14,827 bases of DNA from Octopus sinensis. Lineage: Eukaryota. Of this stretch, positions 3,076 through 14,630 are shown piece by piece. Made by a program: the position numbers and the translations under genes. The stretch lies in NCBI RefSeq assembly GCF_006345805.1, contig NW_021825712.1, positions 1-14,827 on the forward strand, read 5' to 3'. Within the stretch, counting starts at the first letter, position 1. The number at the start of each line of letters is the position of its first letter. The notes below the pieces were generated by a model. It was not told the DNA's origin, made no database searches, and worked only from the letters and a program-made list of their open reading frames with translations.

Positions 3076-3298
3076 TAATATATCAAATGAGCTGGTCCAT
3101 TCTGTGATTCTGTGAATTTCATGTATGATATCGGTGATATCGAAACTGTCATTTTAGTGGGTTATATCAGTGAAAAATTGCCCCTTTTACGCTATATCAT
3201 ATAGTCTTCATTTTATTATATTTTGATCTCAAAGATAGATTTTTAGATATGTTTTACAGTCTAATTGATTACGTCTGTGCCATTAAACTTATACTTGA

Positions 3299-3372
3299 TT
3301 TTTATTATTATTATTGATTATCATTATTATCATTATTATCATTATCAGTTATTATCATTAATATTATTATTA

Positions 3373-3409
<37 letters not shown>

Positions 3410-3822
3410 CATTATTAATATTATTAATATCATTATTATTATTATTATTATTATTACCATTATATTATTATTATTATTATTAATATCATTATTATTATTA
3501 TTATTAATATCATTATTATTATTATTAATATCATTATTATTATCCTTATTATTATTATTATCATTATTATTTTTATTATTATTAATATCATTATCATAAT
3601 CATCATCATTGTAATCATTATTATTATTATCATTGTTATCATTATTATCATTATTATTATTATTATCATTATTATTATTATTATTATTATTATCATTATT
3701 ATAATTATTATTATTATTATTATTGTAGTTGTTGTTATGCTTATTTTTATCATTATTATTATTATTGTAGTTGTTGTTATTGTTATTATTATCATTATTA
3801 TTATCATTATCATTATTACTAC

Positions 3823-3873
<51 letters not shown>

Positions 3874-3916
3874 CATTAATAATATTATTATTATCATTAT
3901 TATCATTATTATTATT
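3299..3916. repeat. (ATT)n microsatellite with ATC/GTT interruptions, ~620 bp
   Basis: Directly visible; the source of the poly-I/L/N ORFs. Confidence 0.97.
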
Positions 3917-4404: not shown

Positions 4405-4492
4405 ATGGGGTCGATTTACTCGACTATAGGCGGTGCTCCAGCATGGCTATAGCCAAATACCTAAAAGACGTAAAAGCGATAAAGAATAAATG
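4405..4492 (+). mobile_element. 3' fragment of the same SINE type as 1725-2135
   Basis: TGGGGTCGATTTACTCGACTATAGGCGGTGCTCCAGCATGGC... matches the reverse complement of about 1725-1800. Confidence 0.75.
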
Positions 4493-4541
<49 letters not shown>

Positions 4542-4554
4542 TAGATATATATAT

Positions 4555-4614
<60 letters not shown>

Positions 4615-4615
4615 G

Positions 4616-4697
<82 letters not shown>

Positions 4698-4703
4698 TGA
4701 TAG
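4493..4703. repeat. Compound (TA)n(GA)n(GATA)n microsatellite
   Basis: Directly visible; the (GATA)n run spans about 4557-4696. Confidence 0.97.
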
Positions 4704-4721
4704 ATCGCTAGACAATACATA

Positions 4722-6078: not shown

Positions 6079-6147
<69 letters not shown>
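6079..6147. repeat. (TATC)n microsatellite, 5' flank of the LINE
   Basis: About 17 perfect TATC units abut the LINE sequence directly. Confidence 0.97.
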
Positions 6148-6875
6148 GTCCAGAGGCCGAAGAAGGGCGAATGGCACCGCGAGTGTCGCGTTGCTCTCAA
6201 GCAACTCTGCCGTCCTGGGTCGACCTTGAGTGACTTCAACACAACCAAAGCATTCTATAGGGGTTTAGTGGAGGGGAAGTACGACGACGAGCTCGGGGCG
6301 AACCTGGACGTCGACGAGGAGTACTTGACCCGCCTGTTCAGGACGACTTTCGGGCCAAGGCCCATGGACAACTTCCAGAGATCCCTGGCCTGGCAGTGCT
6401 ACCGAGAAGCGCTACCCGTTCGGGATAAGCCCTACAGACACGGCTCGAGAAACACGGGGCCGACCTGCCCGAGATGCGGTCAGAGCGACGAAACCGTTCT
6501 GCACGCACTCCAACAATTTCCGACCTGTGGGCTTATGTCGAACAACTGCTGTCACGTGTGGGACGAGTCGGTTTATCAGCTGAGTCTATCGTCAATATTG
6601 TCACGCCTCCCTCCTTCAAACGGTAAGGAAGAGCTATTTTCATCATCCTTGTGGCTATGGCGAAAGAATGTATCTGGTGGACGCGTCTGAAAGGATTGGA
6701 GACAAACACTTTCCTCTCTGGTCAATCTCTCATCAACTTCTTCAAGTACCACTTGAAAAGGAAAGTGAGAGTAGAGAGGCAAGTTTTGTCTAGCGAATGT
6801 TTTAAAAAAAGATGGGTGAATGTAGCAAGAATGGCACGTATGAATGACGAAGCCACCTTGAGCATGATCCTATGA
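6148..6875 (+). pseudogene. Disrupted LINE ORF2 C-terminus
   Basis: A frameshifting deletion near 6510 removes the last Cys of the CCHC motif, and there is an in-frame TAA at 6624-6626. Confidence 0.85.
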
Positions 6876-7236
6876 ACCCAGAAATTGAAAACAGAGAGTT
6901 GCTTATTCGCAAAAAAAAGAAAGAAATATAACATGTGAATCCATTGACCGAGGTTACCGTGGTCTTTTCCGTAGGCTTTTCTTTCCACGGGTAAACCTCA
7001 CCTGTCCTCCCCTTTACACTTCATATTGACATTTCTGTGATAACGATCCCTATTGATCAATTTTTTTTTCTCTCCCCCTTTTTTTTAACCCCCCTTTTTT
7101 TTGTCCTCTTTCTCTCCTTTTACGATCCCTTTTGATCGAAACTCCCCCTTCCTTTTTTTTTTAAACCTTCAAATGAAAAGCTCTACCTTGTAATTTGTTC
7201 TATCTGTGTGCAGCCCTGTGTGGCTAATAAAGAAAC
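6148..7236 (+). mobile_element. 5'-truncated L1/Tx1-clade non-LTR retrotransposon, copy 1 (ORF2 C-terminus with zf-RVT, plus 3' UTR)
   Basis: TKAFYRGL...LAWQCYREALPVRDKPYRHG...CPRCGQSDETVLHAL fits the zf-RVT / CCHC-knuckle pattern of L1/Tx1 ORF2. It continues in another frame as PTISDLWAYVEQLL...AMAKECIWWTR...FKKRW, with a stop at 6873-6875. The pyrimidine-rich 3' UTR ends AATAAAGAAAC. Confidence 0.88.
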
Positions 7237-7241
7237 ATATC

Positions 7242-7272
<31 letters not shown>

Positions 7273-7309
7273 CTATATATATATATATATATATATATAT
7301 AGATATATA
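7237..7309. repeat. (ATCT)n-(TA)n spacer between the two LINE copies
   Basis: Directly visible. Confidence 0.95.
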
Positions 7310-7785
7310 TTGAAGAGGAAAGTAAGAGGAGAAAGGCAAGTTTTGTCTAGTGAATGTTTTAAAAAAAGATGGGTGAATGTAGCAAGGATGGCACGTATGA
7401 ATGACGAAGCCACCTTGACTATGATTCTATGAACCATAAAAATTAATACAGAGAGTTGCTTATTTGCAAAAAAAAAGAAATATAACATGTGACTTCATTG
7501 ACCGAGGTTACCGTGGTCTTTTTCGTAGGCTTTTCTTTCCACGGGTAAACCTCACCTGTCCTCCCCTTTACACTCCATATTGACATTTCTGTGATAACGA
7601 TCCCTATTATTCATTTTTTTGTCCCCCCCTTTTTTTAACCCCTCCCTTTTTTTGTCCTTTTTCTTTCCTTTTACGATCCTTTTTGATCGAAAACCACCAC
7701 TCTTTTTTTTTTTACCCATAAAAGAAAAGCTCTACCTTGTAATTTGTTCTATCTGTGTGCAGCCCTGTGTGGCTAATAAAGAAAC
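7310..7785 (+). mobile_element. More strongly 5'-truncated copy 2 of the same L1/Tx1-type LINE
   Basis: Aligns to 6753-7236: last 40 codons (LKRKVR...MIL*) plus the full 3' UTR, with the identical end GCAGCCCTGTGTGGCTAATAAAGAAAC|ATATCT. Confidence 0.9.
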
Positions 7786-7788
7786 ATA

Positions 7789-7837
<49 letters not shown>

Positions 7838-7843
7838 ATCTAC

Positions 7844-7874
<31 letters not shown>

Positions 7875-7955
7875 ACTAACTATCTATCTATCTAACTATC
7901 TATCTATCTATCTATCTATCTATTTAACTATCTATTAACCTATCCGTCTATCTGT
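7786..7955. repeat. (TA)n then degenerate (TATC)n microsatellite, 3' flank of the LINE pair
   Basis: Directly visible. Confidence 0.95.
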
Positions 7956-8794
7956 ATTTCTACCCATAAGAATATATGTCTATATATGTAGAGAGTGAAA
8001 CAAAGAGAAATACAGAGATACGGGTGCGGTAGTGCTACAAGTCTATGAAAGAAAATCACCCATACAGAAAATAGAAGAACAGAAAATACACAAGAAAAAA
8101 ACACGATATAAAAATTGTAACAATGGAAGTTAACGGGAAAGAGGTAAGTGGGGAGGGTGGGAGACTCTACGGGATAAAAAATAGGAGAAAGAAAGATGGT
8201 GATCAAATATATAGTGTCGGAAGTGAGAGATTACTGGAGAAGGAAAGAAATAGGAAATAAAGTTGTCCACCATTTTGAGAGTACGTGCGTTAAGACCGAA
8301 GATAAGAAGCAGACATTTTACTTTCATCCTTATTCCGTTGTCTTTATTTTAATAAGAAATAAGCCGTCAATAGTTATTCAAAAAGAATCATGAAAACAGT
8401 TCGTTAAAGTGTTCTTATAATAGTGGTAGTGAGGGAGATGCTGCAGGTGTTTGTGTCGGCGTTGGCGCTGGTGTTTGTTGGTAGTGTTGGCGTTAAGTAT
8501 TCCGAAATCGGTGCACTGACGAATGTAAAATAAATAGGAGTCGGGTTCAAGAAGTGTTTCTAACTCCTTTTGATGTTCTCGCAGGGAATTATTTCAATAA
8601 AGCTTTCCTACTAAACTAATGCTTCCTCTTTTTTCTTTCATCTGAAACGAAATACGTAGTCATACGTATACATGCACATACTTAAGTATAAACACATATA
8701 AACCCACAGCTCAGACACTCACCTACACTTACACAAACACAATTACCCAGACACGTAACTACGCAAACATACACACATATCGCACACAATTGAA

Positions 8795-12640: not shown

Positions 12641-12764
12641 TAGAAGTTCCGCTATTGCTTTGAAACGTCCACCGGGTGCATGTATGTAAATTTTAGATTG
12701 TGTCAACTGCCATTTACCAACCAAAAATAGACACGTGACATCCAAACTGAATTCAAAGAAAAGT

Positions 12765-12966
12765 ATAATAATAATAATCTTTTCTACTATAGTCACAATG
12801 TCTGAAATTTGGGCATAAGGGGTTAATTGTTTTCCCCGACTGCAGTGCTAAACTGGTACTTAATTTATCGACACCAAAAGGATAAAAAAAGATAAACGAC
12901 CGCACTGGAATATGAACTCTGAGAGGAAAGACGGACGAAATGTCGCGAAGCACTTTGTCCGCCGCC
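12765..12966 (-). mobile_element. 5'-truncated tRNA-derived SINE (second family) with (ATT)n-ending tail
   Basis: GGTACTTAATTTATCGA is shared with 13808-14012 and 14013-14244. The tail CCCAAATTTCAGACATTGTGACTATAGTAGAAAAGATTATTATT matches the tail of 13808-14012. Confidence 0.8.
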
Positions 12967-13253
12967 ATTTAGAATAATATAATAGAATATGAGCTAGTCA
13001 TGACTGTCTGGTTTTTACCTACTAAGATTGAATTGGCCAATAAATGCTCTTCTTGTTTCAAAACAATCTTAGTAGGTAAAAACCAGACAGTCGTGATTAG
13101 CTGTATTCTATCATAGTATTCTAAATTACGCCGGACAAGGTGCTTCACGACATTTCGTCCGTCTTTAGTCTCAGAGTTCATATTCCGGTGCGGTCTATTT
13201 TTTTTTATCCTTTTGGTGTTGATAAATTAAGTACCAATTTACCACTGCAGTCG
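12837..13253. repeat. Long inverted repeat (arms 12837-13030 and 13064-13253, 33-nt loop)
   Basis: The innermost 29 bp are perfectly complementary (GACTGTCTGGTTTTTACCTACTAAGATTG / CAATCTTAGTAGGTAAAAACCAGACAGTC). Complementarity continues with scattered mismatches out to CGACTGCAGTG / CACTGCAGTCG. Confidence 0.95.
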
Positions 13254-13807
13254 ATGAACTGGCATGAGAAAATATGGTTGCTATTTCTAGCATATTACAG
13301 GATTAAATGGTGGATTCATAGATTCCGTAGAGGTACAGACAGTATCGTTTGTTTATATTAAAATTACAATTGATAAATCATTATTTATTCATAATATCCA
13401 TCTTTTGATTATGGTCTGTAGACCGAAGCAAATTTTGATATTTTCCTGTCTATGACATTAGTGAAATAGATTGAAACGTGTAAATCTTGAATATAGGAAA
13501 AAAGAAACTGCTATACGTGTAATAACTGATCGTTTATCTGCTATTAAACAACAGATTGGTTGTTTCAGATGCTGTTAGTTTGTTGCCAGCCCACTGCTTT
13601 TCCTGTGTGCATGACATTAGAGGAATTTATTGTAATGTTTAATTCTGTAGTATGGTTAAAAACAGACTGCTATGGGTAGAAATGTTTCACATCCATCAAT
13701 TATTAAACAAAATATGCAGGTTTCCATTGCTGGTCACTTGAGTTTAATGCTAACACGATAAAAAGAATTGGGAAAAGTTAAATTGCAGTTTATAGCTGTA
13801 TGATGTT

Positions 13808-14504: not shown

Positions 14505-14630
14505 GCATCTCTCTATATGTCTATCTATCTATGAATTTATTTGACAATCTATCTTACCTATTTACCTATCTCTCTGTCTATATATCTATATATCTGTCTA
14601 TCTATCTATATCTCTATATATAATATCTAC
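14505..14630. repeat. Degenerate (TATC)n/(TA)n microsatellite
   Basis: Directly visible. Confidence 0.85.

Follow-up and report, generated by a model that had tools for sequence, protein, structure and literature searches.

Independent L1-group retrotransposon insertions from two subfamilies stacked in one (ATCT)n microsatellite of Octopus sinensis

A compound microsatellite of Octopus sinensis carries two 5′-truncated copies of a non-LTR retrotransposon at positions 6,079–7,955 of contig NW_021825712.1 (14,827 nt; this whole stretch, here called the window, was analysed). Two questions follow: is the repeat the target into which the element inserts or only the tail that it leaves behind, and do the two copies stem from one insertion event or from two? 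The reading that we favour, with a probability of roughly 85%, is that they are independent 5′-truncated insertions into (ATCT)n, drawn from two subfamilies of a ~6.1-kb non-LTR retrotransposon with two ORFs, and that they were made in one fixed orientation, likely by way of APE nicking of (AGAT)n and AUCU pairing. It builds on features that could be observed directly: the anatomy and copy number of the element, the 5′ and 3′ junctions and orientation of its copies, purifying selection between the masters, a common target and head-to-tail stacking.

At the locus (all features on the forward strand), the upstream part of the target microsatellite is a (TATC)17 array (6079–6147; 17.2 copies, 100% matches). 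It is followed by GTCC (6148–6151), four junction bases absent from the element, either an array variant or untemplated. Copy 1, a 5′-truncated insertion of subfamily A, comprises the last ~1.1 kb of the 6.1-kb element (6152–7238) and ends in AATAAAGAAACAT; 710 of its 721 coding bases (98.5%) are those of the dispersed copy L103. An earlier note on this DNA had placed its start at 6148: the copy is real, but the family match begins at 6152 and GTCC does not belong to the element. The C-terminal remnant of ORF2 (6152–6875) includes a zf-RVT CCHC finger at about 6382–6513 (PF13966; E 0.0027, below cut-off), suffers from a frameshifting 10-bp deletion between 6508 and 6509, and is closed by a TGA at 6873–6875; the 3′ UTR (6876–7238) has pyrimidine tracts and AATAAA shortly upstream of its end. 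The spacer (7239–7309; 74-bp gap), consisting of (ATCT)n and then (AT)n, is at once the 3′ flank of copy 1 and the 5′ flank of copy 2.

Copy 2, a 5′-truncated insertion of subfamily B (7310–7787), retains the final 40 ORF2 codons, with the TGA at 7430–7432, and the 3′ UTR; 117 of its 120 coding bases are identical to L168 (97.5% over the shared coding part). Downstream, a single ATCT unit, (AT)n and degenerate (TATC)n form the remaining part of the compound microsatellite (7788–7955), and the right flank (7956–8400) is single-copy in the genome. The two copies align on the same strand with 445 of 477 matched columns identical. What had been described as a same-strand, 5′-truncated pair lacking poly(A), both members ending in AATAAAGAAAC and then ATATCT, is indeed present in the sequence. 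The (TATC)n/(TA)n said to lie on both sides of each copy needs a qualification: repeats flank both, but the immediate neighbours of copy 2 are (AT)n, the (ATCT)n upstream of it starting about 35 bp further away. Elsewhere in the window, there is a GA-rich tandem repeat (232–762; 162-bp unit, 3.4 copies, 90% matches), and two similar stretches about 370 bp apart with near-identical translations (12753–12968 and 13125–13361) probably represent a short interspersed repeat in tandem.

A search of the element's own genome (2.72 Gb) with copy 1 yielded 1,137 candidates, of which the best 40 were scored, nearly all being 98–100% identical. By extending 35 copy 1 matches and 20 of 40 ORF1-region matches, we obtained natural full-length copies that define a ~6.1-kb two-ORF LINE. 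Its 5′ UTR of ~220 bp precedes an ORF1 of 667 aa (665–667 aa across L067, L069 and L087) with one CCHC knuckle. The underlying motif, CX2CX4HX4C, is present in subfamilies A and B; Pfam zf-CCHC matches ORF1 of B at E 0.01, below cut-off, and there is no Pfam match in A, while the Atlas neighbours of ORF1 carry zf-CCHC (score 0.91). ORF2 (1,145 aa) specifies an APE endonuclease (Exo_endo_phos, PF03372), a reverse transcriptase (RVT_1, PF00078) and zf-RVT (PF13966), all above cut-off, and its best PDB match is human L1 ORF2p (E 6.6e-57). Of the 150 best endonuclease matches, 13 fall within open frames of 1,146–1,185 codons; among 20 full-length A copies that were fetched, not one has both ORFs open. 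The element shows the hallmarks of the L1 group: a separate upstream ORF1, a fixed 3′ end, variable 5′ truncation (80 of 108 copies are truncated, at scattered positions) and no LTRs. The 27-bp A/B 3′ terminus occurs 4,555 times in exact form in the genome (control: 0), continuing into ATATCT in 3,950 cases. Twenty of 24 sequencing runs (10 studies, five organism labels) contain 0.80–0.91 of the words; contigs from four runs, of which three were presumed RNA and one presumed DNA, cover 29 of 30 bins, the 3′-end bin being without depth.

Random 5′ flanks genome-wide, with ATCT as the element's own tail only, had been named beforehand as the outcome that would count against targeting. For 108 copies of at least 300 bp with a visible 5′ end (80 truncated, 28 full-length), picked by similarity, the 30 bases preceding the 5′ junction were scored, as were 79,760 background windows from 20 fixed-position 10-kb stretches. 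Once tabulated, the flanks are not random: they are ATCT-rich in 69 of the 80 truncated and 25 of the 28 full-length copies, as against 140 of the 79,760 background windows (0.18%), and GATA-rich, the opposite orientation, in none of the 108. AT-rich windows are 11 times commoner in the background (1,588/79,760), yet they flank just one of the 80 truncated copies. Of the 11 truncated exceptions, four are internal rearrangement junctions and one is copy 2 of the window; two more have short ATCT runs, two lack a repeat, and the flanks of the other two are (ACAT)n and (CT)n. As similarity had guided the choice of these copies, a position-ordered sample was also taken, i.e., the first 30 termini along contig C1. 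An N gap hides one 5′ end; of the 29 resolved, 25 are ATCT-rich, two have no repeat, and (TTTC)n and (AT)n account for one each. About 86% of copies sit inside ATCT/GATA microsatellites; the 5′ flanks of the other 14% or so are rearrangement junctions, lack a repeat, or consist of (AT)n, (CT)n, (ACAT)n or (TTTC)n. The (ATCT)n targeting proposed for this family is borne out by the 5′ junctions of truncated copies and by the position-ordered sample; both proportions (69/80 and 25/29) lie far above the 20% of flanks with one sequence type beyond which an element counts as target-specific (PMC4494074). The pattern of tail-only microsatellite seeding, with a repeat on the 3′ side only and random 5′ flanks, was not found. 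In two copies with no upstream ATCT array (L036, L159), TATGGACCT lies no more than about 20 bp from the junction and may be the end of another element. The window itself includes two more GATA/ATCT arrays with no element copy (4492–4705 and 14507–14621), so suitable targets are not saturated.

On the 3′ side, no poly(A) was seen at any of 131 ends: ATATCT follows 103 of them and TTATCT 12, and the AT of the terminal ATATCT is element sequence. At least ATATCT or TTATCT at the 3′ end of nearly all copies would also suit the explanation that the element makes its own flanks: with little insertion preference, the reverse transcriptase would add ATCT at both ends, by slippage on the 3′ tail and by template jumping or an ATCT-headed RNA on the 5′ side, after which the arrays expand. 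We consider this unlikely, but it has points in its favour. Some 5′ runs are just 8–17 nt long. At insertions, the arrays have a median length of 136 bp, somewhat above the size-biased mean of 102 bp from only nine background arrays, and the element may therefore add repeats. Moreover, one full-length copy with a twin-priming-type inversion (L112; G000:C1:134304748-134314747) shows an 11-nt stretch of ATCT at the internal junction, beside the element's 5′ end, which suggests, in this single case, that the full-length RNA begins within the upstream array; in full-length copies, part of the 5′ array may thus arrive with the RNA.

Truncated copies, however, lack the 5′ end of the RNA, so that target is the best reading of their upstream arrays (median 72 bp of ATCT in this class, where 69 of 80 have it). 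The length of the upstream array does not correlate with that of the downstream one (rho 0.04, 92 copies), and either side may be as short as 6–8 nt: a long array on one side and 6–8 nt on the other occur in either order (L096 and L029 versus L108 and L099), as for a cut anywhere in an existing array. Degenerate tetramer runs, found in 22 of 89 5′ flanks versus 32 of 1,560 background windows, likewise argue against self-made flanks, and the flanks look like older compound arrays; a variant repeat type common to both flanks gives a weak signal (10 versus 5.9 expected, p = 0.045). Finally, the off-target copies L339 and L337 are flanked on either side by (AT)n or (TTTC)n and have gained no ATCT array. 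(ATCT)n is a target, not just a tail. A long target-site duplication was not detected: the first 3′ variant was found in the 5′ flank in four of 46 informative copies, with 1.4 expected; the (AT)n on both sides of copy 2 could be a duplication. Among the matches listed for empty paralogous pre-insertion sites, there were only self and stack matches.

Passive accumulation, i.e., random insertion with survival only in ATCT arrays, as proposed for Drosophila Waldo-A/B near CA repeats (PMC3812793), is very improbable here: the enrichment is several hundred-fold and strand-specific, singles out ATCT despite the commoner (AT)n, and is already present in copies 98–99% identical to each other.

The earlier note had counted six synonymous and two amino-acid changes in the 40 codons shared by the two neighbours, and our recount gave exactly these figures; with 23.7 synonymous versus 96.3 non-synonymous sites, such a bias has P = 0.001 under neutrality. 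Each copy has dispersed, near-identical relatives closer to it than the two are to each other: the search with copy 2 gave its own dispersed set (527 candidates, best 40 scored, 96–98% for the 39 others). In L168, subfamily B retains an intact ORF2; the 5′ UTR and ORF1 of the subfamily are only about 70% like those of A. Over 1,144 ORF2 codons, A and B differ by a dS of 0.15–0.17 and a dN of 0.027–0.032, while two A copies differ by a dS of 0.005. The dN/dS of 0.18 indicates that the copies derive from separate functional masters, and since copy 1 is of subfamily A and copy 2 of subfamily B, the same site was hit twice by independent insertions; both had been proposed in the earlier note, against the local duplication of a dead copy. 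That copy 2 arose by local tandem duplication of copy 1, or is its echo in the assembly, is barely credible and already refuted by the subfamily assignment: same orientation, 74 bp of distance and a short contig equal to the window may invite it, but 32 mismatches in 477 columns with a synonymous bias, the closer kinship of each copy to dispersed copies than to its neighbour, and the divergent 5′ UTR and ORF1 of subfamily B all speak against it.

The nearest relatives of copy 1 are 99–100% identical and those of copy 2 96–98%, so that copy 2 probably inserted earlier and copy 1 later. At a substitution rate of 0.0036 per My (PMC13282606), the A/B split would date, as a rough estimate, to about 20 My ago and divergence within A to under 1 My. 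One further locus (L332:3848-9000 as oriented; G000:C1:14089366-14099365) is a chimera of a B-type ORF1 part (98%) and an A-type remainder (97%), which suggests recombination or template switching between the subfamilies.

Other families, about 80% identical in protein, also insert into (ATCT)n and form head-to-tail stacks in the same arrays. A repeat recurring downstream of A copies proved to be the 5′ end of one of them, family D (548 candidates, best 40 scored). Family D measures about 5.9 kb, its ORF2 is about 80% identical to that of A, and its copies are 97–98% identical mutually; at 30 of 30 loci, the query included, they begin directly after (ATCT)n, and 17 of 20 fetched copies end in AATAAAAAGTTATCT or a close variant. 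Family E, with an ORF2 about 79% identical to that of A, ends in AAAGAAAGTTATCT, and the C type in GGCCAATAAAGAAACTTATCT. A supposed 54%-identical family in L223 and L236 was a frameshift artefact, the true figure being about 79%. Families D and E (L216–L235, L236) have 5′ UTRs of their own and the same (ATCT)n target; they too end in TTATCT, to be compared with the AT of ATATCT that we counted as element. At least 606 ends are followed by the repeat, mainly of the D/E type, as the pattern missed A/B-type ends. Among 131 copies, 26 same-orientation pairs and one opposite pair are stacked less than 500 bp apart. The double insertion noted in the window is therefore real but no rarity: stacking is routine in this LINE family. 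In A, B, D and E alike, the predicted β-B6/B5 loop region of the endonuclease reads [ST]NR[ISV]GSSRSY and differs from that of Tx1 and of the sister clade described below; this loop affects the choice of nicking site in L1 and Tx1L chimeras and is tied to target choice (PMC1950540).

Insertion would likely proceed as follows. A nick by the APE endonuclease in the (AGAT)n strand would free a primer with which the AUCU end of the RNA pairs; target-primed reverse transcription would thus begin on the nicked (AGAT)n strand with at least one AUCU unit transcribed past AATAAA. If these AUCU units serve as the start, poly(A) would not be copied. Synthesis would often stop early and leave a 5′-truncated copy. 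The second strand is presumably cleaved at the first nick or a few bases away, given that no long target-site duplication was seen. ATCT would be left on both sides of the insertion, and the site could thus be hit again, which would yield stacks. (AT)n and (TTTC)n beside ATCT may be tolerated as minor targets, and copy 2 would be such a case. A much wider reading, which we regard as tentative and rather doubtful, is that microsatellite targeting in APE-type LINEs arose here independently: a deep cephalopod lineage apart from Kibi and Koshi, with AUCU at both RNA ends and no duplication, in which at least four or five co-active families would share, re-use and lengthen (ATCT)n and so drive the structure of GATA microsatellites in octopods.

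The element had been taken for a cephalopod family of Tx1 type. Its nearest named protein, about 65% identical (GAB1597330.1), is indeed from a cephalopod, Argonauta hians, in keeping with a host among the octopods. Together with unnamed proteins at 43–46% identity, the octopod element forms a 100/100 clade. In phmmer searches, ORF2 scored 328 bits with Xenopus Tx1, 282 with the Ciona pol-like protein BAC82626 and 196 with human L1 ORF2p. An EN+RT tree of 23 selected proteins, with a plant L1-like root, a single named Tx1 and no vertebrate L1, placed the clade on the Tx1 side (84/79), apart from the Ciona pol-like proteins (95/93). The earlier assignment stands in so far as the element is nearer to Xenopus Tx1 than to human L1; it is weakened by the alternative grouping with the Ciona proteins, which was not rejected (p-AU 0.28 for EN+RT, 0.42 for RT only). 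An N-terminal APE, a reverse transcriptase and a C-terminal CCHC finger in ORF2 are those of the L1 group. Tx1-clade ORF1 is gag-like with a CCHC knuckle, unlike vertebrate L1 ORF1, and the octopod ORF1 is of this kind. The element behaves in the manner of a target-specific Tx1 LINE and, as judged from these protein sequences, membership of the Tx1 clade is likely. The only named Tx1/L1 anchors recovered were Xenopus Tx1 and the Ciona/Phallusia pol-like proteins, and no named Kibi or Koshi protein was among the protein matches; the trees joined P0189, an unnamed protein from a turtle, to Xenopus Tx1, with which it shares 54% identity. We also noted a large, unnamed sister clade (P0002–P0057; 39–54% identity, some clusters with 350–730 members) with a different endonuclease loop. 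A metagenome scan for the flanks of the sister clade at 43–46% identity gave 57 loci, mostly about 28% identical, none of them informative.

As far as the literature was searched, (ATCT)n is a new target for a known kind of LINE, microsatellite-targeting Tx1 elements and octopus L1-Tx1 being already known; our surprise is moderate for that reason. A tetranucleotide target of mixed purines and pyrimidines and a mollusc host join the short list of microsatellite-targeting APE retrotransposons. The mechanism of such targeting is called not well understood in one review (PMC3812793), and with its thousands of young copies, its intact ORF2s and its several families directed at a single target, the octopod lineage offers material to map the endonuclease residues that read a short repeat. 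At many GATA microsatellite loci of these animals, a LINE is to be expected on one side, with likely consequences for the design of markers; anchored PCR could serve to score insertion polymorphisms. We found no ATCT/GATA-targeting LINE in the open literature, a scope that leaves aside subscription journals (including Kojima and Fujiwara 2004), Repbase, Dfam and the Zenodo library of PMC13282606. The catalogue of microsatellite targets in the available text of PMC3812793 lists ACAY, AC, TC, TTC and TAA, with ATCT/GATA absent from that list, and (TG)n was added by PMC4640811. Octopus L1-Tx1 elements appear with no targets in the accessible parts of PMC13282606 and PMC8967140, as do Tx1 elements across molluscs in those of PMC10294476; the portions of PMC9115989 at hand do not mention Tx1. 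In Octopus vulgaris, 13 recently active L1-Tx1 families with 421 insertions and 80 consensus sequences covering 56 Mb were reported (PMC13282606), with no target site in that paper or its supplement as searched; the octopod (ATCT)n lineage is probably among them.

The window also holds an (ATT)n array of about 206 units (3298–3916), with no long ORF adjoining, of the repeat class targeted by Dong. Dong is an R4 element with a restriction-like nuclease, and Waldo/Mino belong to R1. Like Dong ((TAA)n), Waldo/Mino (AC-type) and the NeSL-related Togen ((TG)n), the octopod element is a microsatellite-targeting non-LTR retrotransposon (PMC3812793, PMC4640811), but those are of other clades and have other targets. 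RTE-type microsatellite-seeding LINEs such as RTE-2_OV share with it a microsatellite at the 3′ end (PMC9115989); the octopod element differs in having the repeat on both sides of truncated copies and two L1-group ORFs. With Xenopus Tx1 ORF2 (YTX2_XENLA, P0269), the top-scoring reference element that bears a family name, it shares the same domain order, although the two are 29% identical and differ in length (1,145 aa versus 1,308 aa in Tx1). The predicted hairpin loop of the octopod element would be two residues shorter than that of Xenopus Tx1 and unrelated to it, and the target of the latter is the Tx1D transposon (PMC4494074), as against (ATCT)n here. Among the targets of the Tx1 clade are (TC)n, (TTC)n, (TTCC)n and (TTTC)n; for SINEU-3, successive insertions in tandem at a single target have been described (PMC4494074). 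The closest parallels are Kibi ((TC)n), Koshi ((TTC)n) and the crocodilian Tx1 families ((TTCC)n/(TTTC)n), Tx1-clade APE-type LINEs that likewise insert into microsatellites (PMC4494074, PMC3812793). Compared by published target, the octopod element is set apart from them by (ATCT)n, which is no polypyrimidine repeat (one (CT)n and one (TTTC)n flank occur among its exceptions), and by its mollusc host.
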